Assembly (NCBI GenBank): GCA_964357615.1
Contig: CAYHMC010000003.1
Location: 34,678 to 98,677, forward strand
Origin: an uncultured Candidatus Saccharibacteria bacterium
Lineage (GTDB): Bacteria > Patescibacteriota > Minisyncoccia > UBA6257 > JACOXY01
Direction of reading: 5' to 3'
DNA length: 64,000 nucleotides
Both the position numbers and the translations under genes were made by a program. The stretch's first letter is position 1; every line of letters starts with the position of its first letter. The notes under the pieces are model-generated. The model made no database searches, was not told where the DNA came from, and was given only the letters and a program-made list of their open reading frames with translations. Below, in pieces: positions 1,811-26,639 of this stretch.

Positions 1811-3742
1811 ATGGAAACCAAAAACCAACCTCCAAAAAGAATCCCGCCACGAAGACCCGACGAAAATCACGAAACAACAAAAGGCCGAAGACAACCAACT
1901 ACAACAAGAAGAGGCTCAACTCTAGGTCAAAATAATCACCCAGATAGACCTAGCCAAAGCAAAACGCGTGCCCGCCGACCCGCTTTTGGAGATAATCGCT
2001 CTAGACGACCTTCTTTTCGCGCCCCTGGAAGAAAATTTGTTTCGGGAAATGCAAACTCAACTAAAAATATACATAATGACGAAAGCGACTTGCTCCGCTA
2101 CATTCCCCTTGGCGGATTAGAAGAAGTTGGTCGCAATATGTGTTTCTTTGAATATAAGGACGAGATTGTAATCATAGATATGGGAATTCAATTCCCTGAA
2201 GAAGAAACTCCTGGCATAGATTTTATTTTACCGAATATAGAATATCTCGTTCCTAAAGCAAAAAATATAAGAGCTATTGTTCTTACGCATGGCCATCTAG
2301 ACCACATCGGAGCTATTCCATATCTAATAGAAAAGCTAGGCAACCCACCAATTTATACGACCGACCTAACTGCCGAGATGGCTAAAAAGCGCCAGCAGGA
2401 GTTCCCCAATGCTCACAAACTTGATATCAATCTAATTAAAAACCGAGATAAAGTTAACGTTGGAAAATATTTTGACTTGGAATTCTTTGGAGTAGCACAC
2501 ACAATTCCAGAAACAATGGGAATTGTAATTAAAACTCCCGTTGGAAATATTGTACACTTTGCCGACTTTAGAATTGCATACGACGATAACAATGTCGCAG
2601 AAGGCACCGAAGAATATGAACGCATTGGAAAGCTTGGAATTCATTCTTTTTTAATTGACAGCACAAATTCTCAAAAAACTGGTTTTTCAACTTCAGAAAG
2701 AGTGGTTCAAAAAAATCTAGAAGAACTATTTAGCAAAGCAGAAGGCAGAATTATTGTTGGCACATTTTCTTCTATGATAACTCGTATTGCCGAGATGATT
2801 GAAATAGCCCATAAACTAGGCAGAGTAGTGGCAATAAGCGGAAGGTCAATGCAAGAAAATTTACAGATTGCTCAAAATCTTGGTCACATTAAACCACCTA
2901 AGGGCACACTTATTACCCTAAACGACCTTCATAAATACAGAGACAACAAGATTGTAATCCTTTCAACTGGAGCTCAAGGAGAAGCAAATGCCAGCTTAAT
3001 GCGTGTTATCTCAGGCGAGCATAGACAAGTTCAAATTAAATCTGGTGATACAGTTATTCTTTCTTCTTCTGTTATTCCAGGCAACGAAAGAAGTGTTCAA
3101 AACCTAAGAGACAACTTGGCACGCCAAGGTGCTATTGTTTATACTTCTGGACTAATAGATATTCATGCTTCAGGTCATGCACCAAAAGAAGACTTAAAAT
3201 TGGTAATGGAAATTATCAAACCGAAATTTTTAATTCCAGTTCATGGCTATTACTTTATGAGATCGCTCACCGGCATATATGCCGAAGAAGTTGGTATTCC
3301 AAAAGAAAATGTAATTATGTTAGATAATGGTCAAGTTGCAGAAATGAGCCCAGATAAAGTAAAAGTAAGCAATGAACAAGTGCCCGCTTTTTATGTAATG
3401 GTAGATGGCTTGGGCATTGGAGATGTTGGTGAAATAGTGCTTCGCGACCGCAAAATGCTCGCCGCAGAAGGAATGGTTGTTGTAATTGCTACCATTGACA
3501 AACATTCGGGAAGAATATTAAAAAATCCTGACATTATTTCTAGAGGATTTATTTACCTTAAGGATAATGCAGAGATGCTAGATGAAATTCGAAAACGCAT
3601 CAGAGCTATGATTGGACGAATGGGCGAACAACATATTGATGGTGATTACCTAAAAACCTTAATGCGCGACCAAATTGGACAATTTTTGTTTACTAAAACC
3701 CACAGAAGGCCAATGATATTGCCAGTCGTAATAGAGGTTTAG
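1811..3742 (+). CDS. rnj: Ribonuclease J (beta-CASP metallo-beta-lactamase RNase) with ~90 aa Arg/Pro-rich N-terminal extension
   Basis: HGHLDHIG motif (HxHxDH), then LIPVHGYY and the beta-CASP region, with RNase J-like overall order. N-terminus is low-complexity basic: PPKRIPPRRPDE…RRPSFRAPGRK. Confidence 0.9.
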   Translation: METKNQPPKRIPPRRPDENHETTKGRRQPTTTRRGSTLGQNNHPDRPSQSKTRARRPAFGDNRSRRPSFRAPGRKFVSGNANSTKNIHNDESDLLRYIPLGGLEEVGRNMCFFEYKDEIVIIDMGIQFPEEETPGIDFILPNIEYLVPKAKNIRAIVLTHGHLDHIGAIPYLIEKLGNPPIYTTDLTAEMAKKRQQEFPNAHKLDINLIKNRDKVNVGKYFDLEFFGVAHTIPETMGIVIKTPVGNIVHFADFRIAYDDNNVAEGTEEYERIGKLGIHSFLIDSTNSQKTGFSTSERVVQKNLEELFSKAEGRIIVGTFSSMITRIAEMIEIAHKLGRVVAISGRSMQENLQIAQNLGHIKPPKGTLITLNDLHKYRDNKIVILSTGAQGEANASLMRVISGEHRQVQIKSGDTVILSSSVIPGNERSVQNLRDNLARQGAIVYTSGLIDIHASGHAPKEDLKLVMEIIKPKFLIPVHGYYFMRSLTGIYAEEVGIPKENVIMLDNGQVAEMSPDKVKVSNEQVPAFYVMVDGLGIGDVGEIVLRDRKMLAAEGMVVVIATIDKHSGRILKNPDIISRGFIYLKDNAEMLDEIRKRIRAMIGRMGEQHIDGDYLKTLMRDQIGQFLFTKTHRRPMILPVVIEV

Positions 3743-3772
3743 AGAAAAGCTTATAGTATGAATGACATAAAA

Positions 3773-3804
3773 AATAACGAATTAAATTGCGTTATTTTTT
3801 ATTT
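3773..3804. terminator. Bidirectional intrinsic terminator between rnj (+) and the convergent minus-strand gene
   Basis: Stem AATAACG…CGTTATT followed by a T-run. Confidence 0.55.
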
Positions 3805-4888: not shown

Positions 4889-5827
4889 TTACGGCTGAAA
4901 TATATCCAAAGTCCTACCTTCTACAGAAAGCTTAACGCTTTTTAGGGTAGGAAATTGTAATAGTGTTTCCTTTATTTGAGCTACTCGCATTGTCATACTG
5001 CAAGATCCACCACCAGATTCTGTTATTGAATTAAAATCTGCGCGCGCTTCTCCGTTAACTATTACTAATGAATTAAGCTTGCTACCAAAAGGAATGCTGG
5101 TAATAAAACCGTCCTTTTTTTCTTCGACAGTAGGACCCTTCAACAATTCACTAATTGCAGCCGTAGCAATTTTCTCTGTCTTTTCAATTACTCTAGTAAC
5201 CAAGGTAACTTCATCACAAGAATTGGCTTCTTGGGTTTTGGTATTATGAAAATATACTTTAACGGGAGTAGTTTCTCCTGTTACTACAAAACTAACTTCA
5301 TTGCTCTTTTGCGCCCAAGGATCAACATAAATTTTATAATTTCCTGGAACTAATTTAAGAAAAGAATCGCACGGCAATCCACTATAAGAGGTGTCGTGAG
5401 AACACAAAGAACTAGCCAAAGTAACTTTTATAAGATTGTCGGTTGAGTCATTACTACCCCTAAGCAATCCTTTTACCCCAGATGCATTTTGAATCCATGC
5501 ATTCTTATCTCCTTCAAATCCAGAAAAATAACATCCCTTGATTTCTAATTTTGTTCCAGCAGTACCTGAATAACTTGAAAGTTGATGTATTATTGGAACA
5601 CTTTCCTCTCCGTCTTTCTCGGGCTCGCAGGGAAGCTCCATGGCGACTGGCGAAGGTGATGTCAAAACCGACAAATTAGGCGAGTTCATTGGGGAGGGTG
5701 CCCCATCTTCAACATATCTAATTGAATTTCTAAGCAAGGCAACGCACACTGAAACTACAGCCAAAACAATGAACATACTAACTACTAAAATATTTACAAA
5801 TCCCTTTTTTTTCATATTATTAAGCAA
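4889..5827 (-). CDS. GerMN domain-containing secreted protein
   Basis: N-terminal TM helix. C-terminal region VKVYFHN…LLKGPT..E…ADFNS…GGSCSMTMRVAQIKETLLQFPTLKSVKLSVEG matches the GerMN consensus pattern. Confidence 0.55.
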   Translation of the reverse strand: MLNNMKKKGFVNILVVSMFIVLAVVSVCVALLRNSIRYVEDGAPSPMNSPNLSVLTSPSPVAMELPCEPEKDGEESVPIIHQLSSYSGTAGTKLEIKGCYFSGFEGDKNAWIQNASGVKGLLRGSNDSTDNLIKVTLASSLCSHDTSYSGLPCDSFLKLVPGNYKIYVDPWAQKSNEVSFVVTGETTPVKVYFHNTKTQEANSCDEVTLVTRVIEKTEKIATAAISELLKGPTVEEKKDGFITSIPFGSKLNSLVIVNGEARADFNSITESGGGSCSMTMRVAQIKETLLQFPTLKSVKLSVEGRTLDIFQP

Positions 5828-5831
5828 ATTT

Positions 5832-6428
5832 TTATTTTATAAATTTAAAAGTAGAGAAAATAATGTTCAGCTCTTGCAATGCTTTATCTGCAATAACCTT
5901 GTCTACTCCAAGGTGTGCATACGCATAGATAGTCTTTCCGCTGAGCTCACCAGCAATCATCATGGCATACCCCAAGGGTATTCCTCGTTCATCTGAACTT
6001 CTAAAATTTATGGTTTGGTATGTTACCCCATTTGCAACAAAATTTCCCCCTTTACATCCTGAGGCTGGATTATTTGGAGTTGCGCACTCAAGTAGACTTT
6101 CTGGAGATCTATCTTCAAACATTATAAAATTAATCCAAAAAAAGCTACCGTCCCCAATGAGCCTCCAATGATAACTGTCGTTTAAAGTCTCTTCGATTTT
6201 AAAAGTTGATGGATACCTAAACTCAAATCCAGCTATTTTATTTAGATATATTTTCCAGCTTGAGGGCTCGGTAGCTAACACTAATGGCGATGGCATACTT
6301 AATCCAGGCTCCATGAGTATATCGGGAATTGCTTTATCTCTTTCTGTGAACATTACATACCCAACCACCCCAACCAAAACTACCCCCAAAACAACTATTA
6401 ATACATTTATAAATCCATTTTGCTTCAT
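5832..6428 (-). CDS. Hypothetical membrane-anchored protein
   Basis: N-terminal TM helix. Third in a run of co-oriented secreted proteins. Confidence 0.45.
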   Translation of the reverse strand: MKQNGFINVLIVVLGVVLVGVVGYVMFTERDKAIPDILMEPGLSMPSPLVLATEPSSWKIYLNKIAGFEFRYPSTFKIEETLNDSYHWRLIGDGSFFWINFIMFEDRSPESLLECATPNNPASGCKGGNFVANGVTYQTINFRSSDERGIPLGYAMMIAGELSGKTIYAYAHLGVDKVIADKALQELNIIFSTFKFIK

Positions 6429-6482: not shown

Positions 6483-7544
6483 ATGTCTAAACCAATTTTA
6501 ATATCCGGAATGCAACCCTCTGGGAAGCTCCACATTGGAAACTATCTTGGAGCACTAAAAAACTTTGTTGTCTTACAAAACTCAGGCAAATATCAGTGTT
6601 ATTTTTTTATTGCTGATTATCATGCTCTCACCGAGCCATTTGACCCATCTCAAACACCAGCATTAATGAGTAATTATCTTGCAGCGGGTTTGGACCCAAA
6701 AAAGTCTGTCCTTTTTGTACAATCTGAAGTGCCATATTCTACAGAGTTGGCATGGATATTAAACACCATAACGCCATTTAGCGAACTTATCCGCATGACA
6801 CAGTTCAAGGAAAAGGCGATGTTTAATGCAAAATCATTGTCAGGAAAAATTGCAGAGGAATATATGCCAGTAGATGGCGACATAGAGAATAGTGAGGTAA
6901 TTGAAAGACAAAATAAATCAGTATTAAGCCCCAATGTTGGACTATTCACCTATCCAACACTAATGGCCTCAGACATTATTTTATATAACGCAGAATTTGT
7001 ACCCGTTGGAAATGACCAAGACCAGCACCTAGAACTAACAAGAGAGTTAGTGAAAAAATTTAATAATAAATTTGGAAAAGTTTTTATAGAACCAAAACCA
7101 GTTCACACCTCAACTCCACGCATTATGAGTTTAAATGACCCAGCAAAAAAAATGTCAAAATCTTCCCCCGAGGGATGCTTGTTTTTAGACGATAACCTAG
7201 AGACAATTAAGAAAAAAATATCTCGCGCTGTAACAGACTCTGAAAGTGAAGTTAAGCTCGATGAGGATAATAAACCTGGCATAGCAAATTTAATTCGTAT
7301 TTATCATGGAATAACCAATAAACCAATAGAAAAAATTGAATCCGAATTTAGTGGCAAAAATTATGGCCAACTTAAAGAAGCTTTAACTAATGTGATTGCT
7401 AAAGAACTAGAACCTTTTCGCAATAAAAACTCTGCGCTATCAAAAAAATCTAAATTAGCCTTTTCGGCAGGCGCAAAAAAAGCTCGGAAAAATGCCGAAC
7501 TAAAAATGAAGTTGATTAAAAAAGCTATTGGGTTAATAAAATAA
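6483..7544 (+). CDS. trpS: Tryptophanyl-tRNA synthetase
   Basis: Class I motifs HIGN (GKLHIGNYLGAL) and KMSKS. TrpRS-like length, with a ~25 aa insertion before the GLFTYPTLMASDIILY segment. Confidence 0.9.
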   Translation: MSKPILISGMQPSGKLHIGNYLGALKNFVVLQNSGKYQCYFFIADYHALTEPFDPSQTPALMSNYLAAGLDPKKSVLFVQSEVPYSTELAWILNTITPFSELIRMTQFKEKAMFNAKSLSGKIAEEYMPVDGDIENSEVIERQNKSVLSPNVGLFTYPTLMASDIILYNAEFVPVGNDQDQHLELTRELVKKFNNKFGKVFIEPKPVHTSTPRIMSLNDPAKKMSKSSPEGCLFLDDNLETIKKKISRAVTDSESEVKLDEDNKPGIANLIRIYHGITNKPIEKIESEFSGKNYGQLKEALTNVIAKELEPFRNKNSALSKKSKLAFSAGAKKARKNAELKMKLIKKAIGLIK

Positions 7545-9920: not shown

Positions 9921-9971
9921 ATAGCTATTATATAACGAATAACAGCAATTTAGTTACAAAAAAAGACCGCC

Positions 9972-10124
9972 TCAGTTGTTCTGGGCGATCCGGTGAAGTT
10001 CGCGCTTTTCTTGTCTGCGGTCATAGCCGTGCTTTCCTTTCTTAGTGGAATGATATCCACCAGTTTGTCTTGGTAGTGGAACACGCATCATTGCAAGCGG
10101 ATTCTTTGCTTTTACTTTTTTCAC
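9972..10124 (-). CDS. Small basic protein (50 aa, GTG start), GC-rich cassette 1 gene A
   Basis: SD GAAGGAGG sits 4 nt before the GTG start. ORF is MKKVKAKNPLAMMRVPLPRQTGGYHSTKKGKHGYDRRQEKRELHRIAQNN. An intrinsic terminator (GATCGCC…GGCGGTC plus T7) follows the stop. Not in the ORF track (<60 aa). Confidence 0.4.
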   Translation of the reverse strand: MKKVKAKNPLAMMRVPLPRQTGGYHSTKKGKHGYDRRQEKRELHRIAQNN

Positions 10125-10459
10125 TTTTCCTCCTTCGGTAAGTCGTAGCTTTAGCGAAGGTTACCCTTCATTAGTTTTTCTACTAGCTATAGTCTCTCCC
10201 TTTCAAAATCCACATTTAAACATGAACTTTAAAAGAAGCCCGAGGGACAAAACAGAGATGCGATTTCTCTGATGTGTCACTCGGGGTATAAATCGCGCAG
10301 TCCGCATACTTGATTGCAATCAAGTAGTTGCGGTTGACAGTGGTTACCGTGTGAATCTTGCAAAATGCACACAGATGCCTCCACTGCCTAACTCCTCTCA
10401 TTTCATCGCAAGGGTTGGCACGGTTTGGATTGGCTGCGCAACCAACCACCCGTAGATTT

Positions 10460-10714
10460 CTATTTGCGACGCTTGCGACTCTTGCCACCGCCACTCTTCA
10501 ATCCTTGAACCATCATCTGGAAACCTACGTAGATGATCCCAAGAATCACCACGTAGTTCAAAATGTGCTCGAGGAGTGGAGTTATGTGGTTTACAGCCAC
10601 AATTCCAAGTCCCGGAACCACAGAGAGGAACACAAGGACGAGAAACCCAATCGTCCAGAGACCTCTGGGAGGAAAGAAAAGATATCTTCCCCATGCTTCG
10701 AAAAAATCTCTCAT
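10460..10714 (-). CDS. Small membrane protein (84 aa, two TM helices), cassette 1 gene B
   Basis: SD GAGGAG sits 8 nt before the ATG. Two hydrophobic helices and a basic C-terminus. GC-rich codon usage unlike the flanking genes. Confidence 0.45.
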   Translation of the reverse strand: MRDFFEAWGRYLFFPPRGLWTIGFLVLVFLSVVPGLGIVAVNHITPLLEHILNYVVILGIIYVGFQMMVQGLKSGGGKSRKRRK

Positions 10715-11064
10715 ACTCTTTTCTCCTCGCTCAAATTTTTATTTGAGCTGTTATTGGTTTTTGATGTGCTGTCATTGCTTCCTTTCAAAATATTTATTGA
10801 GTTAAATATTTTGAAAGGAACCCGAGAGAGTCGACCGGCAATTTCTTGCTCGGCTCGCTCCCTCGGGAAAACGGGTTTTTCTCCGGCTATAAACCCGAAA
10901 ACGGTTCTGCTTTTTTTTGAGTCCGAGAGGGGGATCGGCCCTTCACAGCTGGCTTCTGCCCTCTCGGTGGTAGGTTTTTGCTGAAAACCTTTCCCCAAAA
11001 CAGCGCGCGCAATCCAGGTCAGGCACCTGGGAGCAGGAAGGATTTGGAGTCGTTTAGCACTCCG

Positions 11065-11298
11065 TTATCCTGCTCGTTCGCTTTGAGTCCGGAATGGACC
11101 CCTCACCCGACCCGGGCGAGCAAGCCTATCGTCCTGAACGAATCGGCATGGCAGCGAACCGCCTACATTCTGCATCGAGTGGCCAAACTCGTATGCAGAC
11201 CTCTGCTGAACACATGGGATTTTCCCCTGTGACCCCGTACCCGGATGGCTGCGCGCGTCCATCTGTACAGGAATTAAGATTTTTCTTCGGTAAGCCAT
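11065..11298 (-). CDS. Questionable small ORF (77 aa), cassette 1 gene C; start lies inside the repeated leader element and has no SD
   Basis: Open frame in GC-rich DNA. The region is full of hairpins and may instead be non-coding. Confidence 0.2.
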   Translation of the reverse strand: MAYRRKILIPVQMDARSHPGTGSQGKIPCVQQRSAYEFGHSMQNVGGSLPCRFVQDDRLARPGRVRGPFRTQSERAG

Positions 11299-11578
11299 AG
11301 CTTTAAACGAAGGCTACCCTAATTTCTGTACAGATGATTTACATACCTACTTAAAAAATTTAGCGAAGAACTTTTCTGTTTCGTCCTGAGCTTGTCGAAG
11401 GACTCATCAGTACGAGCATACACTCGTAGACAGAAAGGAGTTTTAAGGTCTCCTTAAACCCTACGCTGTGGTCTCGCTCATGCTTATCAAAAAGTTTGGC
11501 TAGAACTTTTATGTTCTGCTAATGCAGAACTTTTGCATGAATCCCCACTTACGTCTGCGCAAACGGCCAGAGCAACCC

Positions 11579-11857
11579 TTAACCGATACTCAGGTCAAGT
11601 ATTTGTCCGACGTAATCCTTAACATCAACACCTTGCGGTGGAGCGCCAAGAACCACGTACAGACAACGGTCGCTGTAGGCGGATGACATAGCTCGGAAGT
11701 CTGCGCTAATATTCTTAGCCGCAAGCGTCCGACGCACATGCGCAATCCGCCTCTGGCAGGTAGGACAACCATCCGCTTCGGCTACTTCGAAAAGAATGTT
11801 GCCATTCTCCTCCAGTATCGAGCGCGGAGTTGCCCAGCCTTGCACGCGAACTTGCAT
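11579..11857 (-). CDS. Small CxxC (CPTC) protein, thioredoxin/glutaredoxin-like guess, cassette 1 gene D
   Basis: SD GGAGG sits 6 nt before the ATG, and a 7-bp hairpin (CCTCAGA…TCTGAGG) sits just 5' of the SD. The protein contains GCPTCQ. Confidence 0.4.
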   Translation of the reverse strand: MQVRVQGWATPRSILEENGNILFEVAEADGCPTCQRRIAHVRRTLAAKNISADFRAMSSAYSDRCLYVVLGAPPQGVDVKDYVGQILDLSIG

Positions 11858-12039
11858 AATTCACCTCCTTTCATGCCTCAGAGCCATCTGAGGGTTAGTT
11901 GTGAATTATAAATCCATTCTCGAAGAACTTTCAGAAAACAAAATGTTTTCCTGTTAAAACATTCCAATCTTGAAATGCTTTAACAGAAACCCGAATTTTG
12001 TCTCGGGCGGGACACTCGTTTTTCCGGATAACGAGAAAC

Positions 12040-12273
12040 CTACATCGCGAGCTGGGGCTCCTTACGAACTGGGAGTCCCAGCTGGGCGAGTTCGGCGCGA
12101 ACCTTTTGGACCAGCGGACGGTCCGGAAGATTCACTTGCAAGGTAGCTTTACAGCCCTTGCACTTGCCGACCTGACCCAAGAGAGCAAGACGAATGCCCT
12201 CTCGCGGTGAGCGATGCGGACGATTTCGATGTCCGCATTCCTCACAGTAAACATAGAATGGTTTAAAGAACAT
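12040..12273 (-). CDS. Small zinc-ribbon protein (CxxC…CxxC), cassette 1 gene E
   Basis: SD GGAGG sits 4 nt before the ATG. Cys pairs YCEECGH and KCKGCK are spaced 24 aa apart. Confidence 0.4.
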   Translation of the reverse strand: MFFKPFYVYCEECGHRNRPHRSPREGIRLALLGQVGKCKGCKATLQVNLPDRPLVQKVRAELAQLGLPVRKEPQLAM

Positions 12274-12629
12274 TCGACCTCCGATTTCAACCCTAACCTG
12301 CTATTTCTAGTCAGGATTTTACAGGGCGTGATTCCTTAAGGAGAGACCACAGCAAAAGTTCAAATTACTATTTATAACTATGCTAAACTTTTTTCTATGG
12401 CCTCCCCTAAAGGAGGCGGGAGAGATATGTTTAGGTCTGTTATTTTGTAGTTACGACCAATCATCATATCTGCACCCCATATTTATTTTCTGCGGTCATT
12501 ATACTCGATTTTTATGTATTTGTCAAGTGTCGGTGACAAACCGCTAAAATAAGCCTTATTTACTATATTTTATAAGAAAATTACTCTTTATTACTATGTC
12601 AAAATAGATAGACTTAGTTTTTAATATAC

Positions 12630-12658
12630 TTGACTAAAAGTAAATTATATGTTACAAT
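12630..12658 (+). promoter_or_regulatory. Consensus sigma70-type promoter (TTGACT-17-TACAAT) driving a non-coding unit
   Basis: The -35 TTGACT is at 12630, then a 17-nt spacer, then -10 TACAAT at 12653. Confidence 0.5.
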
Positions 12659-12664
12659 CTGCTC

Positions 12665-12938
12665 GAATGTGGCTATTCTGGTTTTTGTTTGGGCCAAGCT
12701 ATGTTCAGAGTCTGCGCAACCCTCGACTAAGTCGAGGTGGGGCTAAGGAGGTGCCAAATGAAGCTAGGCGGATCAGGTATCTAAAGCAACTCAATTCTGT
12801 GGTCTCTTTTGCAATCACATAGTCTGCTAGGCCAGAGAACAGCAACCAAAAAAAGTCAGTTCAATAGGCATTCCGATATAATTAAATATATCAACTTCCG
12901 GAGGCACCACCATGTGGCAAGCCTCCACTTTTTATTTT
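12665..12938 (+). ncRNA. Candidate structured sRNA (~270 nt), identity unresolved (6S-like architecture possible)
   Basis: Runs from the promoter to an intrinsic terminator (CCGGAGGC…GCCTCC plus T-run, 12898..12938). No ORF beyond 8 codons. The 5' end (GGTTTTTGTTTGGGCCAAGCTATG) pairs with the 3' end (CATAG.GCTAGGCC…AACCAAAAA). Confidence 0.35.
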
Positions 12939-13025
12939 AGCCTACAACTTTAATGCTAATTTTTAATCAAAATTAAAAAATCCAAAGAATTTATTCTTTG
13001 GATTGTAACAACCATAAAAGCTAAC

Positions 13026-20660: not shown

Positions 20661-21317
20661 GTGAAATTCCAAGACCTCGTGCGAATAAATTTGGCAGCAA
20701 AATTTATTCATGAATCTAACTTAATTGAAGATGTTGATATTAAAATTGAGGCAATAAGAGAATGGATTAAAATGCGCTATAAACTTGGTCATGTAGGGGC
20801 ATTATTATTTTTAGAATATTGTCTAGATAAAGATATTCGTTTTAGCGAGATAGTTCTTTTTCAAATTCATAGATATATCATAGATGAACAAAACGAATAT
20901 TTTTCTGATATTTTAATTTCAGAAAATTTAATTGGTAAATATAGAAATAAACCGGTAAAAATTGGGACGCGCTTCGGACTTGATCATCGCTTAATCAGAG
21001 ACGAGATGGCTAAGCTAATTGAAAGAATTGAAAAATTTCAGCTTAAAGAAAAAAATAAAACAGGACTACTTAGAAAAAGCGACGAGCATGGTATCGTAGA
21101 AAAAATCGCCGATTTCCACTTTAGATACGAGCGCATTCATCCATTTATTGACGGTAACGGCAGAACTGGCAGACTTTTGGTTTGGTACTTGATGAAATTC
21201 GCAGGACTTAAACCTTTTATATTTACCTCACGCGACAAAGGACACACCTATTATGAAGCGTGTCGCTCGCAAAAATTAATGCGAGAATATTTTGCAACTC
21301 GAGCACTGTCAGCTTAA
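20661..21317 (+). CDS. Fic family protein (AMPylator-type)
   Basis: Core motif HPFIDGNGRTGRLL (HPFx[DE]GNGRxxR). Confidence 0.85.
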   Translation: MKFQDLVRINLAAKFIHESNLIEDVDIKIEAIREWIKMRYKLGHVGALLFLEYCLDKDIRFSEIVLFQIHRYIIDEQNEYFSDILISENLIGKYRNKPVKIGTRFGLDHRLIRDEMAKLIERIEKFQLKEKNKTGLLRKSDEHGIVEKIADFHFRYERIHPFIDGNGRTGRLLVWYLMKFAGLKPFIFTSRDKGHTYYEACRSQKLMREYFATRALSA

Positions 21318-21361: not shown

Positions 21362-22057
21362 TTAATCATGATGGTTGCTAAATTCTCTATATAAACAAAA
21401 TTCGCATCTTTTGTTTACTGGTGGTAATGGCTCTCGTAGTGTTAGGACGGCCTCTCGAAAAGTTTTTAGCACACTGTCTGGGTCTGTATTAACTTTATAA
21501 ATTGAAATATTAAACGCTAAGGGATTTTTAATATCCATATTCTTATGGTCCAGATACCAATAAACTAAATAAGCTATATTTTCAGTTTTAATATCATTCT
21601 CTCTTAAAAACAAAGCATATGCACTCATTTGATATGCATAAGATGGATGTGGCTCGCCAGGTGGAAAACCCTTTGTCTTGTTATCGAGTGGCACTATAGA
21701 CCCATCTTCAAGCTCTAATGCATCATCTAACATTCCCTGAAAGTAGGCGTTAGTTTCTTTATCTAAAATACCAAAAGTTCTCGAGCGAAATTTTGCAATA
21801 AGTGCCTCATTAGACAAAAGTTTTACTTTTATTTTTTTAAATTTTTCATCTAAAAACGGTGGGGAACCTCCATTTTTTCTAAAATAATCAAAATAGTTTT
21901 TAAGCGTATAGTCCACTCCATTTGGGAGCGTTGACATAGGTCCAGATGGGCGCTTTATTTCTTCGTTAAACTGAAGCCAAAAACATCTCGAACAATCTCG
22001 ATAGAGAGAAAGGGATGAAGGAGATAATTTTATTAAACCAGCTTTTGATTTTGACAT
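21362..22057 (-). CDS. PD-(D/E)xK nuclease, Cas4/RecB-like with four-Cys cluster
   Basis: N-terminal CSRC and C-terminal CEFC give four Cys, as in Cas4/AddB Fe-S nucleases. Also a QxxxY motif (YQMSAY) and D/E-K residues. Confidence 0.5.
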   Translation of the reverse strand: MSKSKAGLIKLSPSSLSLYRDCSRCFWLQFNEEIKRPSGPMSTLPNGVDYTLKNYFDYFRKNGGSPPFLDEKFKKIKVKLLSNEALIAKFRSRTFGILDKETNAYFQGMLDDALELEDGSIVPLDNKTKGFPPGEPHPSYAYQMSAYALFLRENDIKTENIAYLVYWYLDHKNMDIKNPLAFNISIYKVNTDPDSVLKTFREAVLTLREPLPPVNKRCEFCLYREFSNHHD

Positions 22058-22117: not shown

Positions 22118-22579
22118 ATGATGCAAGATAAAACAGGAAACATTTTAAGCATAAACAAAAAAGCTTCATTTGATTATGAAATCATTGAAACATATGTGGC
22201 TGGCGTGCAACTTTTAGGATTTGAGGTTAAGTCTATTCGAAAAGGATCAGCGTCTTTAATTGGCGCTTTTGTTGTAGTTCGTGGTGGTGAAGTATATTTG
22301 CTAAACGCCAATATTCCCCCATATCAATCAAACAATTCTCCAAAAGATTATGAATCAACCCGTAGCAGAAAACTACTTCTCAAGAAATCAGAAATTGCTG
22401 AGTTAATTGGTAAAACAGAAAAGACTGGCTTGACACTTGTGCCACTTAAGTTGTATAATATGGGCAGTAGAATTAAGTTACAAATCGGCTTAGCGCGCAA
22501 TAAAAAGAAACATGACAAACGTGCTTCCATAAAGAAGAAAGATGTTGAGCGCGAAGTTGGGCGTAGACTTAAAGGATAA
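22118..22579 (+). CDS. smpB: SsrA-binding protein
   Basis: Typical SmpB sequence (KKASFDYEIIETYVAGVQLLGFEVKSIRKG…). The tmRNA gene follows immediately. Confidence 0.9.
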   Translation: MMQDKTGNILSINKKASFDYEIIETYVAGVQLLGFEVKSIRKGSASLIGAFVVVRGGEVYLLNANIPPYQSNNSPKDYESTRSRKLLLKKSEIAELIGKTEKTGLTLVPLKLYNMGSRIKLQIGLARNKKKHDKRASIKKKDVEREVGRRLKG

Positions 22580-22583
22580 AAAT

Positions 22584-22931
22584 GGGGATGAAAGGCCTCG
22601 ACAGGCTACTAACCTTAAAAATTGCAAGCAGAGATGTGAAATCTCTTAAAACATTCACAAAAGAATAAGTGCAAACTCATTCAACAAACAACCGGCCTTA
22701 GCATTTGCATAAGACCCATCGACGCTACTTACGCCTAATCGGTTGATCGTCGGTGTTAAATTATTAGGCTCTGTTCCCTACTCCTGCGGAGGGAATGAAT
22801 ATTGAGCGGGAAAGTGTTGTGTGCTTGGCCTCCTGGCACTTGGCACATGACACTTAAAATAATGTCAGGATAAGCTTGTAGATATTTTTAATTTTACGGC
22901 CTGGACGGCGGTTCAAATCCGCCCATCTCCA
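22584..22931 (+). ncRNA. ssrA: tmRNA (SsrA)
   Basis: 5' GGGGATGAAAGGCCTCGACAGG. Tag reading frame GCA AAC TCA TTC AAC AAA CAA CCG GCC TTA GCA TTT GCA TAA gives ANSFNKQPALAFA. 3' tRNA-like end GGCGGTTCAAATCCGCCCATCTCCA. Confidence 0.85.
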
Positions 22932-22943
22932 CAAACTAAAAGA

Positions 22944-22972
22944 TCGCCCATTACAGGGCGGCTTTTTGTTTT
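22944..22972 (+). terminator. Intrinsic terminator of ssrA
   Basis: Stem TCGCCC…GGGCGG followed by TTTTTGTTTT. Confidence 0.6.
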
Positions 22973-23073
22973 ATGAGTGGATTTGAACGGGAAGGGGGTC
23001 GGGGGAACTCCTGTTTCCCCGTGGCGGAAGTTTTGAAACCGATGGGTTTCAAAAAATTTATAAAGTAAATTTG

Positions 23074-23095
23074 TTCAAATCCCCCATCTCCACCA
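23074..23095 (+). repeat. Direct repeat of the ssrA 3' end (att-like scar)
   Basis: TTCAAATCCCCCATCTCCACCA compared with the ssrA 3' end TTCAAATCCGCCCATCTCCACA (21 of 22 positions match, one indel). It lacks the 5' half of the T-stem, so it is a fragment and not a gene. Confidence 0.6.
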
Positions 23096-23134
23096 GATAA
23101 AATTGCTCGACTTTATATTGGGTGATTTTTAATA

Positions 23135-23163
23135 TATTGACTTTATAGATAAAATATAGTATA
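23135..23163 (+). promoter_or_regulatory. Consensus sigma70 promoter TTGACT-17-TATAAT (cassette 2, P1)
   Basis: Exact -35 and -10 hexamers with a 17-nt spacer. Confidence 0.55.
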
Positions 23164-23215
23164 ATTTATACAGTTCAGAAAACGCGCTATTGGCGCCCAC
23201 AAACAAGGAGAACGA

Positions 23216-23392
23216 ATGACAACCGCACAAGCAATGAGCGACTACAACACCAAGTGCTATGCAGCTGCACTTGGTCTTCCGGAAAACGCAGGGCTTCGAG
23301 CTGTAATGGACGAGATTAGCTCGCGCCGAGAAAAGGGTGAGCCCATTCCCACCCTGCGAGAGATCTTCGCAGCGCGCAACCAGAAGCGCTAG
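23216..23392 (+). CDS. Small hypothetical protein (58 aa), cassette 2 gene 1
   Basis: SD AAGGAG sits 6 nt before the ATG. GC-rich codons. A terminator follows. The antisense 105-aa ORF on the track is rejected. Confidence 0.45.
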   Translation: MTTAQAMSDYNTKCYAAALGLPENAGLRAVMDEISSRREKGEPIPTLREIFAARNQKR

Positions 23393-23433
23393 AAATATTA
23401 TTTCCCCAACCAAGCCCAGCATCCCCTGCTGGC

Positions 23434-23470
23434 AGACCCATCTCACGGTGGGTCTTCTTTTTTTTATTTT
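23434..23470 (+). terminator. Intrinsic terminator
   Basis: Stem AGACCCA…TGGGTCT followed by T9. Confidence 0.6.
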
Positions 23471-23586
23471 AAATTGACTTAATACTTTTTTATAGTAAGC
23501 TTTGAAAAGAAAAGTGATTTTATATCACTTAAAAAACACTAGGAAACAAATATGAGCACTACAAAGCAACGCGGGAGGAATGACAG

Positions 23587-23859
23587 ATGGGGTCTAAAGA
23601 TAGAGCTGGAATTTTAATTCGCAAAGCCCGCGTTAAAGCCGGTGATTATGGCAGTTGGAAAATTGCCAAAAAACACGACGGCATGGAAATATGGATTGTC
23701 GCAGAGAAACCAGTACACAAACGCTTTCGAAATCCTCGTGGTCAAACATCCGAGGGATTAGTATATCGCCGTCTCGATGGACTCGTCGCTCGAGCAGAGT
23801 ATCTTGAGCTTACAGATGAATTTGCGGTGTACAATCCAGACAATGCTGGCCATGCATAA
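23587..23859 (+). CDS. Hypothetical protein (90 aa), cassette 2 gene 2
   Basis: SD GGGAGG sits 7 nt before the ATG. GC-rich. A terminator follows. Confidence 0.45.
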   Translation: MGSKDRAGILIRKARVKAGDYGSWKIAKKHDGMEIWIVAEKPVHKRFRNPRGQTSEGLVYRRLDGLVARAEYLELTDEFAVYNPDNAGHA

Positions 23860-23889
23860 AGTAGTTACCCGACTAATCCTATTTCGTCC

Positions 23890-23927
23890 CCCGTTATATC
23901 TTCGCATCTAACGGGTTTTTTATTTTT
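23890..23927 (+). terminator. Intrinsic terminator
   Basis: Stem CCCGTT…AACGGG followed by T6ATTTTT. Confidence 0.6.
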
Positions 23928-23993
23928 ATAAAATCTATTTATTGCTATAAGAATTTATTCCATAGCTGATATTTCTATTAACTTTGCTTGATA

Positions 23994-24021
23994 TTGACTT
24001 TTTGATAAAAATTAGTATAAT
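23994..24021 (+). promoter_or_regulatory. Consensus sigma70 promoter TTGACT-16-TATAAT (cassette 2, P3)
   Basis: Exact hexamers with a 16-nt spacer. Confidence 0.5.
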
Positions 24022-24080
24022 GTTAAAAGCAAAAAGGCATTGTAGCTACATCGCACCCTAAAAACCAAAAGGAGAACTGA

Positions 24081-24221
24081 ATGGATGGGAGCTTGATTGT
24101 TCCAATTATTGTCTTTGCTGTTGCGGTCATTTTTTTTGGATGGTGTCGCTGGGTGCTAGACACAAAGCAACCACATCGCCTCAAAAGACTTAGGGACAAT
24201 TGGAAGGTTATTCCCGATTAG
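24081..24221 (+). CDS. Small membrane peptide (46 aa, one TM), cassette 2 gene 3
   Basis: SD AAGGAG sits 6 nt before the ATG. ORF is MDGSLIVPIIVFAVAVIFFGWCRWVLDTKQPHRLKRLRDNWKVIPD. Confidence 0.35.
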   Translation: MDGSLIVPIIVFAVAVIFFGWCRWVLDTKQPHRLKRLRDNWKVIPD

Positions 24222-24255
24222 CAAAAAGAAACCAAAAACCAGACGGAGGTAAAGA

Positions 24256-24564
24256 ATGCCATACATCGTCGCGCTCAGATACACCAAGGGAGCTGGTGGC
24301 TACTGCGGAGTAGTTACCTGGACACAGTTTCCGTCCAAAGAAGAGTTCGATAAGGTTCGAAAACAATTCCTTAATAGTTCCAATCAGGAAGTCGTCGAAG
24401 AGGGCATCACGGACGAGCGCGCCATTGAGCTCTCTAAGCAAACGCCAGCCGAATGCCGCATCAATGCCGCCGTCGAGGAGTCTCGAATCCCCGGCACCAA
24501 TTTAGTCGATGGCGAAGCGCTCAGTCATCATCTAACAAACGCAATTCTCGCTGAAATTTTATAA
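24256..24564 (+). CDS. Hypothetical protein (102 aa), cassette 2 gene 4
   Basis: SD GGAGG sits 6 nt before the ATG. Co-oriented with the 46-aa peptide 35 nt upstream. Confidence 0.45.
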   Translation: MPYIVALRYTKGAGGYCGVVTWTQFPSKEEFDKVRKQFLNSSNQEVVEEGITDERAIELSKQTPAECRINAAVEESRIPGTNLVDGEALSHHLTNAILAEIL

Positions 24565-24650
24565 TTCAAAGTTCAATCACCAATAAGAAGCTCACCTACT
24601 TCAATGCGGTTGGGCTTATTTTTTTTATTTATTATATATTTAAAACAATC

Positions 24651-24678
24651 CATATAAATTTGACAATTCTAAAAAAAA
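24651..24678 (+). promoter_or_regulatory. Consensus sigma70 promoter TTGACA-16-TATAAT (cassette 2, P5)
   Basis: Exact hexamers with a 16-nt spacer. Confidence 0.55.
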
Positions 24679-24726
24679 TTATATAATTACACCGAGAACT
24701 TTGAAGCAGGTGGCTTTGTAACCCCT

Positions 24727-25122
24727 TTGAAAAATAAGGGTGGAAATGAGGCGGAGGCTATGGAGCGTCAAGTAAAGATGTGGGCGGATACCGAAACCAA
24801 AAACGTTATTCTTGTGAGTCCTGATGGCACATGTGTCCATTCAACACTTATTCGCATCGTTGCGTACAAAGTAACGCTTGATGTCACAATCGCCCCAGGA
24901 CAGAATGGCGTTCCAGAAAGCATTGAAGATGCCGAAGTCGAAAGACTCGTGCTCGAGTTCTACTCCACTGAAATTCTACCAGGAGAATCCTTGGATGAAT
25001 TATTGTTTAGACTTGCGAACAAAGATAATAATTTCATTAGTCCAGAAACCGAAGAACTGCTTAATGCTGTCTGCAATGAAGGCAATATAATTATGCTTGG
25101 AAGCAGAGATTTTTTTATCTAA
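24727..25122 (+). CDS. Hypothetical protein (131 aa; alternative start at ATG 24760 with SD GGAGG), cassette 2 gene 5
   Basis: GC-rich ORF followed by a terminator (CCCACC…GGTGGG at 25136..25164). Confidence 0.45.
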   Translation: MKNKGGNEAEAMERQVKMWADTETKNVILVSPDGTCVHSTLIRIVAYKVTLDVTIAPGQNGVPESIEDAEVERLVLEFYSTEILPGESLDELLFRLANKDNNFISPETEELLNAVCNEGNIIMLGSRDFFI

Positions 25123-25223
25123 ACGATTACCAAAACCCACCCTTACATAGGTGGGATTATTTTATTAATTGAAGTTTTTACAACTTATAAAATATAACTT
25201 TCCGTGTTACTCTTAAAAAACAT

Positions 25224-26639
25224 ATGATACAACCAAACAGCACCAAGGTTAAAATCGTGGCAACACTAGGTCCATCAACCGACACCGTAAAGAATATAAA
25301 TAAAATAATTCAGGCTGGAGTTAGAATTGTTCGTATAAATTTTTCACATGTTTCTTCGTACAAAGACGCAAAAAAACTTGTTGACAACGTTAGAATCGTA
25401 GAAAAGACTACCAAAAGACCAATAGCAATTTTAGGAGACCTAGCAGGACCCAAAATACGCATTGGTAATATAGATGGAAATCCAGAACTTAAAAGCAATA
25501 AAATTTTTATATTTCACACAAAAAAAATTACGGGCACCAACGAAGCAACTTCTTTAAACTATCCGAAAGTATTAGAAAACTTAAAAATTGGAAGTGAAAT
25601 TTACTTAGGTGATGGAGATATAAAGCTAAGTGTAATAAGCAAATCTAGAGACGAAGTTAGGGCAAGAGTTCAGGTTGGTGGAATTCTTCGTTCTCGAATG
25701 GGATTTTCAGCCATAGGAATAAAAAGGCCCACGCTTTCGCTTCAGAAAAAAGATATTGCGGATATAAAAACATTGGTATCTCTTGGAATTGATGCTCTAG
25801 CAATTTCTTTTGTTGAAGACGAAAATGACATACATCAAGTAAGAAAATTATTGCCTAAAAATAACCCCCCATTAATTTTTGCGAAAACTGAAACCGAAAA
25901 TTCAGTGAAAAACGCTGAAAGTATAATTGATGCAGCCGACGGCCTTTTAATTGCAAGGGGTGATTTAGGATTTTCCGTGCCAATTGCTGAACTACCATTT
26001 ATTCAAAAGAAATTAATAAATCTTGGTTTAGAAAAATCAAAACCAGTTATAACTGCAACCCAAATGCTTGAGTCTATGATAAAGAGTCCTTATCCAACAA
26101 GAGCAGAGGTTACTGATGTTGCAAAAGCTATTTTGGATGGCTCAGACTGCGTGATGTTATCAGGAGAAACAGCCAATGGAAAATTTCCTGAAGAAACTGT
26201 AAAAATGATGTCTCACATTATAAGACGCGCAGAAAAAGAAATAGTAAATCCTCTTAAATTCCCAAAAGCAAAATCTGTTGCAGATACGGTAAGCGCAAGT
26301 GCAATACAGGCCACAGAACAAGTTGATGGAAAACTCATTGTAGTTTTTACGGATAGCGGATCTACCGCAAGACGCCTTGCGCGCCACAGAGCGACTTATC
26401 CAATCATAGCGCTTACTCCAAACAAAATTACATTTAGACAATTAAGATTTACATGGGGTGTATTTCCTTATTTAATTAATAAAACTCAAAATTTTGACAC
26501 TATATTAGTAGAGGCAAGAAAATTCGCAATGAGTAATGGAATTTGTAAATTAAAATCTGGTGATTTATATGTTATAAGCGCTGGACTACCACTCGGAAAA
26601 CCAGGGACTACAAACTTGCTACTAGTACAAAAAATATAA
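25224..26639 (+). CDS. pyk: Pyruvate kinase
   Basis: KIVATLGPS at the N-terminus, the K+/Mg2+ site region and MVARGDLG-like motifs (IARGDLGFSVP). Length 471 aa. Confidence 0.9.
   Translation: MIQPNSTKVKIVATLGPSTDTVKNINKIIQAGVRIVRINFSHVSSYKDAKKLVDNVRIVEKTTKRPIAILGDLAGPKIRIGNIDGNPELKSNKIFIFHTKKITGTNEATSLNYPKVLENLKIGSEIYLGDGDIKLSVISKSRDEVRARVQVGGILRSRMGFSAIGIKRPTLSLQKKDIADIKTLVSLGIDALAISFVEDENDIHQVRKLLPKNNPPLIFAKTETENSVKNAESIIDAADGLLIARGDLGFSVPIAELPFIQKKLINLGLEKSKPVITATQMLESMIKSPYPTRAEVTDVAKAILDGSDCVMLSGETANGKFPEETVKMMSHIIRRAEKEIVNPLKFPKAKSVADTVSASAIQATEQVDGKLIVVFTDSGSTARRLARHRATYPIIALTPNKITFRQLRFTWGVFPYLINKTQNFDTILVEARKFAMSNGICKLKSGDLYVISAGLPLGKPGTTNLLLVQKI

Follow-up and report, generated by a model that had tools for sequence, protein, structure and literature searches.

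The 3' end of the tmRNA gene (ssrA) in the window, by which we mean the whole 64-kb stretch of DNA that was analysed, carries a very small insert, closed by hairpins and coding for no protein, through which the end of the tmRNA gene is duplicated, and the agent behind it is not a recognisable integrase element. On balance we think it probable that the insert belongs, by its layout, with a class of small structured elements, that it sits behind ssrA with the original gene end displaced, and that it entered by a site-specific exchange whose enzyme was supplied in trans.

The repeat of the ssrA end is real and non-random. ARAGORN and Rfam both place ssrA directly 3' of smpB, with the terminal sequence GGCGGTTCAAATCCGCCCATCTCCAC (full layout ...GGCGG-TTCAAAT-CCGCC-CATCTCC-A-CAA); because the gene terminates in ACAA, it does not completely encode CCA, which is likewise incompletely encoded in most ssrA genes of the clade. 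An earlier note had described the sequence at 23074-23095 on the plus strand (TTCAAATCCCCCATCTCCACCA) as a repeat of the last 22 nt of ssrA with one indel, and we recovered it as such: comparison of 23073-23095 with ssrA 22911-22932 gives 10 + 11 identical bases with one G absent (a 22/23-nt copy with one indel), and the second copy terminates in ACCA where ssrA itself has ACAA. No match at ≤3 mismatches arose in 100 dinucleotide shuffles of the window (0 of 100), and GTTCAAATCC, the sequence with which the repeat begins, occurs four times in the window against 0.24 expected, three of these occurrences falling inside 170 nt here; a chance origin of the repeat is thus excluded. The note was also right that the copy is not a second gene, since ARAGORN calls only one tmRNA and one tRNA and Rfam gives nothing credible over the insert; no second tmRNA or tRNA gene or pseudogene was found there by ARAGORN or by Rfam to E = 10 (22500-23300). 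The features of the locus, all on the plus strand, are the following.

22118..22579, plus strand: smpB (Pfam SmpB, E=1.5e-50)
22584..22934 (ends 22932/34), plus strand: ssrA (tmRNA), tag peptide ANSFNKQPALAFA (ARAGORN; Rfam RF00023, 146.6 bits)
22911..22932, plus strand: X1, ssrA from G53/T-loop through its 3' end, GTTCAAATCCGCCCATCTCCAC, the copy in present use by ssrA (repeat analysis; same 3' end in relative L204)
22944..22972, plus strand: strong predicted intrinsic terminator inside the inserted unit, TCGCCC-ATTACA-GGGCGG plus T-run (terminator/fold prediction)
22973..22998, plus strand: X', in which part of the ssrA T-loop and T-stem recurs in inverted form, then GGGAAGGGGG (inverted-repeat search, 88% complementary)
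23001..23020, plus strand: hairpin 1, GGGGGAAC-TCCT-GTTTCCCC (folding; unique in the window)
23031..23054, plus strand: hairpin 2, TTTTGAAACC-GAT-GGGTTTCAAAA (folding; once in the window)
23054..23072, plus strand: hairpin 3, A+T-rich, AAATTTAT-AAA-GTAAATTT, directly before copy 2 (folding)
23073..23095, plus strand: X2, the direct copy of the ssrA end, GTTCAAATCC-CCCATCTCCACCA, one G missing (repeat search; collinear with the native ssrA end of relatives)
23096..23165, plus strand: what is left of the ancestral terminator T-run, followed by the promoter of the first cassette downstream, TTGACT-17-TATAAT at 23137-23165 (collinearity with relatives)

The inserted unit is 162 nt long (22911-23072), equal to the start-to-start spacing of X1 and X2, and starts with a replacement 3' end, passes through the strong terminator and the inverted copy, and finishes with three hairpins. 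Between the two copies lie 139 nt of non-coding DNA without an ORF. This interval had been described as 140 bp holding the ssrA terminator and a hairpin-dense segment, and that much stands, both of the hairpins then named being real (23001-23020 and 23031-23054); a third hairpin at 23054-23072 and the inverted copy at 22973-22988 had gone unlisted. X' begins 39 nt past ssrA, directly after its terminator (palindrome at 22944-22961), on the plus strand in the same sense as ssrA. Within it, ATGAGTGGATTTGAAC (22973-22988) is complementary to GTTCAAATCCGCCCAT at 14 of 16 positions, GTTCAAATCC reads on the minus strand at 22979-22988, and GGGAAGGGGG (22989-22998) is complementary to CCCCCATCTCC of copy 2. 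The insert is predicted to fold as a closed multi-branch, multi-hairpin structure (z = -3.8 and -2.6 for the plus strand), and its minus strand folds about equally well. No promoter precedes it, and a strong terminator stands between it and ssrA. Rfam, at the gathering threshold and at E ≤ 10, gave nothing credible over the insert, and because nhmmer returned only the window itself among the first 81 loci, the interior of the insert is without comparative support.

The locus was compared with 80 smpB-ssrA loci of reference genomes and with contigs of the closest SmpB relatives. In L002 (SmpB 87% identical to that of the window), ssrA is followed by its terminator and then by a TTGAC..TATAAT promoter, with no insert; terminator and promoter likewise follow ssrA without an insert in L208 (SmpB 86% identical) and in L204 (SmpB 79%), whose ssrA 3' end is identical to that of the window (GGCGGTTCAAATCCGCCCATCTCCACAAAC). 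L202 (SmpB 85%) has a different insert, a LAGLIDADG-like ORF after the terminator, and two more ssrA-terminus copies bound successive cassettes. The hairpin segment of the window is absent from all four of these close relatives. The tandem arrangement is therefore missing in four related genomes (L002, L204, L208 and L202), and the objection raised in advance to the insertion reading, that the arrangement might be a conserved part of the ssrA terminator region, fails; the insertion logic of the earlier note holds. The comparison supports the reading of the repeat as the sign of an insertion into the end of ssrA, with copy 2 the probable right-hand boundary of a 162-nt non-coding insert.

As to which junction is ancestral, a point the note had left to such an alignment, the answer is the side of copy 2. 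No gap is needed to align the window, from copy 2 as far as the promoter, with the region of L002, L208 and L204 that runs from their native ssrA end to their promoters; the T-run, -35 and -10 are in register, and because copy 2 is collinear in this way through the promoter, it is probably the displaced ancestral ssrA 3' end, as in an attR. The displaced end would still stand at the ancestral distance from the next promoter, and its decay appears to have begun (one G lost). The trailer after copy 1 (AAACTAAAAG, ten bases) is closer to the native trailer of L204 than is the sequence after copy 2, and given this likeness a duplication made at insertion fits as well as a replacement end borne by the element.

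Further features were seen around this locus in the window and in its relatives. Window positions 23216..25160 (plus strand) hold four promoter-ORF-terminator mini-cassettes with G+C-rich ORFs of 58, 90, 46+102 and 131 aa, in a genome of ∼34% G+C; these ORFs had no Pfam match and no credible PHROGs match (only phrog_25296 for the 46-aa ORF, E = 0.049). Because pieces of the cassettes recur in L002, L202 and L204 in another order, the lineage has a variable small-ORF array after ssrA. A pyruvate kinase gene (25224-26639) separates the cassette array from the next syntenic gene and is absent from that place in L002 and L202. In L202, the LAGLIDADG-like ORF (LAGIIDGEGS, 1011-1463) directly follows the ssrA terminator, and the further ssrA-terminus copies bounding successive cassettes lie at 1476-1500 and 2155-2200 (..CCACCTCCACAAATAAAAATAACC.., and ..GTCCACAAATAAAAATAACCCC plus terminator). 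Just upstream of smpB in the window are a Fic-domain protein (20661-21317, plus strand) and a PD-(D/E)XK (Cas4-like) nuclease (21362-22057, minus strand); the nuclease is syntenic in relatives, and the Fic gene is also present in L002 and was not called there in L203-L207, L209 and L210. Several contigs of close relatives (L001, L203, L205 and L209) end shortly after smpB or within ssrA, among them one from the sample of the window and identical to it; a contig of Hainich groundwater sample H41 (ERZ1292625) with an smpB identical to that of the window ends inside ssrA. These contig ends suggest that assembly fails at the 3' end of ssrA because of repeats or of heterogeneity in the population. 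Elsewhere in the window, ∼3 kb at 42-49% G+C (9950-12950), with no convincing ORF, lies between an ABC transporter and a TrmB-like regulator; it includes a type III hammerhead ribozyme match (11373-11436, minus strand; Rfam 44.6 bits, gathering 48.5, E = 8.7e-8), and the region is a candidate for a large non-coding RNA or for a mobile element that codes for no protein.

Elements of similar build stand behind other tmRNA and tRNA genes of Patescibacteria. The search of the 80 loci gave secondary ssrA-end copies at 130-260 nt in L013, L017 and L024 in addition to the window, a split search added L010, L054 and L069, and on reading these loci a shared interior was visible, which nhmmer ties to sequence just downstream of tRNA-Ile(TAT) in L064, L008 and L067. 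The order X, terminator, X', core, X is found behind ssrA in L010, L054, L069, L017, L039, L013 and L007, and the same X/X'/core/X layout behind tRNA-Ile in L064, L008 and L067. A search pattern taken from the shared core (CGGGGTNGCNNAAWWTTN{8,35}TATNYGTGAC) occurred on at least 120 metagenome contigs and on no viral contig in IMG/VR. Among the matches listed, a same-strand tRNA ended 40-350 nt upstream in ∼80 of 130 instances, with essentially every isotype represented; the chance expectation, roughly estimated, is ∼1%. From 5' to 3', the layout of the family reads as follows.

1, a tRNA whose last part is X (T-loop plus the 3' strands of T-stem and acceptor)
2, a hairpin that in many cases is a terminator
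3, X', reverse-complementary to X; in many cases a conserved hairpin (loop AACTGCTT) splits it where acceptor and T-stem join
4, AAR
5, helix P2 (G-N-C ... GGA ... stem-loop ... GA ... G-N'-C)
6, GGG
7, helix P3 (GTCGCRN-AAATTT ... bulged A ... YGTGAC)
8, X again

In nearly all cases the direct repeat of the family begins at T-loop C56, 19 nt before the tRNA end, and it reaches the 3' end and sometimes the trailer; many of the displaced copies are decayed. As far as their sequences tell, elements of this putative class encode no protein, and both of their ends are copies of the 3' half of the host gene, one of them inverted.

Covariation supports a three-way junction as the predicted fold of the family core. 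In a 57-sequence MAFFT alignment, 90% of cells were paired, compared with 75% in shuffles and 37-50% in slid controls, and there were 248 double-change cells versus 71; the N:N' pair was CG in 23, AU in 14, GC in 11 and UA in 6. The corresponding values in a 122-sequence alignment, which is model-based and fitted to the covariance model itself, were 90.6% versus 70.9% in shuffles and 35-49% in slid controls, with 623 double-change cells versus 178. One invariant G.U pair identifies the functional strand of the family as the sense strand of the tRNA. Rfam 15 had no match to family members, and a hammerhead or other small ribozyme was rejected for the junction because, with Rfam silent, the junction lengths and motifs also misfit. 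A pseudo-tRNA formed by tandem duplication was ruled out as well, the 5' arm being a true reverse complement even for non-palindromic T-loops. Full-text literature searches found no published description of such elements; the nearest item, group I introns at position 35/36 of Patescibacteria tRNA genes (PMC13011429), concerns a different feature.

The family is patchy at orthologous loci (6 of ∼80 ssrA loci, 4-5 of ∼60 tRNA-Ile loci) and forms tandem units in L083, L193, L150 and L155, those of L150 being two in tandem after tmRNA. Its members also occur in protein-gene 3' ends with duplicated C-terminal coding sequence (L113, L139, L142), after an L7/L12 gene (L171), and beside 5S rRNA in antisense (L096, L105, L161), the target being duplicated in the 3'-protein-gene and 5S cases. 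No conserved neighbouring protein emerged, as clusters of 656 flanking ORFs were housekeeping families only. Because copies on the same contig are no more alike (0.667) than copies on different contigs (0.675), the elements appear to be old residents, and a recent intragenomic MITE-like burst is ruled out.

Two covariance models, R1 and R2, were built here for the family (core AAR / G-N-C..GGA..GA..G-N'-C / GGG / GUCGCRN-AAAUUU..A-bulge..YGUGAC). Several single loci deserve description. In L109 (7118-8463, minus strand), each of tRNA-Cys, tRNA-Leu(taa), tRNA-Lys and tRNA-Leu(tag) has an R1-family element of its own behind it; the five elements in 1.2 kb share 47-76% core identity with one another, forming arrays with no terminator between tRNA and element. 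In L113 (∼5560-5860), L139 (∼3480-3780) and L142 (minus strand), the host gene has the C-terminal motif ..TKTIPERCSNK.C.NHNPHK, and a diverged duplicate of its last ∼60 coding bases follows the R1-family element. L024 carries a perfect 62-nt direct repeat of ssrA 3' end and terminator (6839-6900 and 6995-7056) around ∼95 A+T-rich bases; it is of the size class of the window insert, its interior is unrelated, and it lies outside the R1/R2 family. Between smpB and ssrA, L204 has ∼270 nt of structured sequence (3246-3515) with inverted ends containing GTTCAAGAATATT and the motif ..GTCTCCACCAG.., and R1-model matches occupy the same interval in L075 (6493-6572) and L005 (6453-6527). Among the fetched loci, some dozen other tRNAs have the X, t, X', core, X arrangement around different cores.

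The window insert was rejected as a member of the R1/R2 family. With filters off, its scores over 22989-23091 on the plus strand (10.3 bits, E ∼1.8 for R1; 10.9 bits, E ∼0.7 for R2) are non-significant, true members scoring 27-90 bits, and nhmmer on the 81 loci found the insert only itself. Of the core motifs, only GGGGTCG and an A+T hairpin directly before X are common to the two, and the window repeat begins at G53 (GTTCAAATCC), the family's at C56. The insert shares with the family its position, its sense, the inverted and direct closing copies (22973-22998 and 23073-23095) and a hairpin-only interior. Given the non-significant scores and the G53 start, its place in the class is a matter of layout alone, and it is best described as a probable divergent or independent variant of the class. 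The broader proposal, that the elements constitute a new class of ∼90-170-nt structured elements built on the 3' halves of tRNA, tmRNA and occasionally other genes, each with an inverted and a direct copy of the host segment on either side of a conserved three-way junction, and either protein-less insertion elements guided by structure or tRNA-mimicking RNAs that tRNA-processing enzymes mature, with the window insert as a divergent member, we advance only tentatively.

Known systems offer a model for how such an insert might enter. An integron cassette consists of a core site, an ORF, an inverse core, the attC centre and a core site; integron attC sites and the folded single-strand attP of CTX-phi and IMEX depend on structure over sequence, are strand-specific, use a recombinase in trans, and can stand in arrays. 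The sequence of core site, cargo, inverse core site, structured centre and core site corresponds to X, t, X', core, X, and the elements resemble these systems further in keeping structure more than sequence, in the strand specificity of the R1 family (the invariant G.U), in having no recombinase in cis, and in forming arrays. The window layout fits imperfect inverted arms round a structured centre, both window strands folding about equally. The differences are that the arms here are ∼20 nt and copied from the individual target gene, rather than being a fixed 7-nt box or a dif mimic, and that the usual cargo is only a terminator; a dependence on IntI or Xer would be putative here.

This shared layout of X, cargo, X', centre and X favours a site-specific exchange with an in-trans enzyme. 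The insert would carry its own copy of ssrA from T-loop to 3' end, which would now complete the gene; its inverted and direct copies would pair as a hairpin stem that mimics the duplex target; and entry would take place by a Campbell-type, site-specific exchange within X between the chromosome and the folded hairpin, catalysed by an enzyme encoded elsewhere and supplied in trans. Such an exchange would resemble the integration of integron cassettes (attC) and of CTX-phi (folded attP), and the replacement 3' end that comes with the insert would leave this essential gene intact. Against the account weigh the rewriting of X and X' that it would demand for each target gene and the match that old copies still keep.

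In size (∼100-170 nt), lack of coding sequence, inverted termini, hairpin formation and intergenic position, the elements are also like MITEs, Correia, REPIN and ERIC sequences. Unlike those of MITEs, however, the termini here are derived from the target and differ at each site, the duplication is 20-60 nt (22 nt in the window) and starts at a fixed tRNA position, the window version is single-copy in the window, and same-contig family copies are old and divergent. The window insert does not qualify as a MITE: its termini copy the local gene in place of fixed inverted repeats, its duplication is long for a target site (22 nt), and its hairpins, far from being present in many copies, occur once in the window.

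The main rival is that the insert would be a functional RNA, either a stretch of the tmRNA or tRNA transcript or a separate small RNA, with a closing stem that imitates the acceptor/T-arm helix, and that it would act by being released by RNase P and 3'-end enzymes or by controlling maturation through pairing with the gene 3' half. We consider this rather unlikely, yet the family core looks RNA-like: one G.U pair is invariant, an A is bulged, and both the asymmetric GGA/GA internal loop and the bases of the junction are conserved. Its sense is always that of the upstream gene. The operon-like cluster of L109, in which each tRNA has its own element and no terminator intervenes, points the same way, as do the age and divergence of within-genome copies that have kept their structure; the age of the family copies fits conserved RNA function at least as well as mobility. 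CCA appears in some copies where the gene has none (window, L099, L200, L176) and looks non-templated. tRNA-like RNAs that tRNA-processing enzymes release are familiar from the tRNA-like domain of tmRNA, mascRNA and bacterial YrlA, and the elements share with these a closing helix with acceptor/T-stem sequence, a discriminator (+CCA) 3' tail in some, and extra arms; they differ in giving no ARAGORN tRNA/tmRNA call and no Rfam match, and in having a T-loop that is base-paired rather than free. Against an RNA role at this locus, the strong terminator separates the insert from ssrA and no promoter precedes it, and the four close relatives do without it. In the family at large, members also lie in protein-gene 3' ends and antisense by 5S rRNA with the target duplicated, which is the behaviour of an insertion, and many displaced copies are decayed. 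The RNA reading is compatible with the preferred one, a mobile element with an enzyme in trans, because a mobile element can act through RNA.

Two further readings, a decayed integrase island and a pure replication error, rank lower. The first would be a classical att scar, a prophage or island that entered by its own tyrosine integrase and was then mostly deleted, leaving attL in ssrA, 139 nt, and attR (copy 2). Integrase islands and prophages at ssrA and tRNA genes have attL and attR as direct repeats of the gene 3' end, a general rule reported in the surveys of K. P. Williams. The window insert is like them in restoring the gene with its own 3' end and displacing the original downstream, in an identity block that runs from T-loop to 3' end, in a presence that is polymorphic among relatives, and in the tandem accretion seen in the lineage (L202). 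It differs in being ∼160 nt rather than kilobases long, in lacking an integrase and cargo, in its extra inverted target copy and structured core, and in that a single core family is found with tRNAs of all isotypes, an integrase element being bound to one gene.

For such a scar speak the direct repeat of the ssrA 3' end, the displaced distal copy that is collinear with native downstream DNA, and the insertion polymorphism relative to relatives in which the insert is absent. The variable cassettes after ssrA in this lineage, some bounded by ssrA-terminus copies (L202 1476-1500 and 2155-2175; L204 ∼4525), are of the same tendency, and ssrA islands with direct repeats of the 3' end are well known, for example the genomic islands of Dehalococcoides (PMC3146451). 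However, the earlier note's attribution of the repeat to an integrase found no backing in the window: the third copy or integrase that it proposed to look for was not found within the 64 kb (≤3 mismatches; 30 ORFs), the 30 ORFs that were Pfam-scanned across the window including no integrase or other recombinase and comprising only housekeeping or uncharacterised proteins. There is no tyrosine or serine integrase in or beside the insert and no kilobase-scale DNA between the repeats (162 nt); what lies between the copies is a 139-nt non-coding hairpin interior that begins with an inverted target copy and has hairpins throughout, unlike a random remnant of an element. Inserts as compact and of like layout and size also recur at independent loci, with a copy 130-260 nt downstream in L013 (inverted), L017 and L024, which is not expected from independent large deletions, and the family core had no match in viral contigs. 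A phage origin was rejected on this absence of the core pattern from IMG/VR, together with the downstream small ORFs having no Pfam or credible PHROGs match. A prophage or island at the window ssrA is thus not supported by the sequence, the att-like reading apparently being right in its logic and the agent one without a recognisable integrase, and we regard the scar as improbable.

Least of all do we credit a local replication error without any element, in which replication switched template or slipped at the terminator palindrome and so made an inverted, then a direct copy of the adjacent ssrA end: the inverted copy does directly follow the terminator hairpin, and in L013 and L007 the terminator palindrome runs perfectly into the ssrA end, but ∼85 nt of unrelated hairpin sequence between the copies and the fixed C56 repeat boundary would be unaccounted for, as would a conserved covarying core at >120 loci, which strongly disfavours the idea.

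Partial repeats of tRNA and tmRNA 3' ends are routinely taken as the scars of integrase islands; here the scar is that of a much smaller, protein-less thing, and such elements can mislead island-finding tools and may account for the frequent breaks at ssrA in assemblies of these genomes. Similarly built elements stand after tRNAs of every isotype, in a phylum of tiny genomes in which non-coding DNA is scarce, and for one core, to which Rfam has no match, the supporting compensatory changes number in the hundreds. Were the elements mobile, they would show how essential RNA genes can be entered harmlessly with no dedicated integrase; were they RNAs, tRNA maturation in Patescibacteria would have a partner that has so far gone unrecognised.
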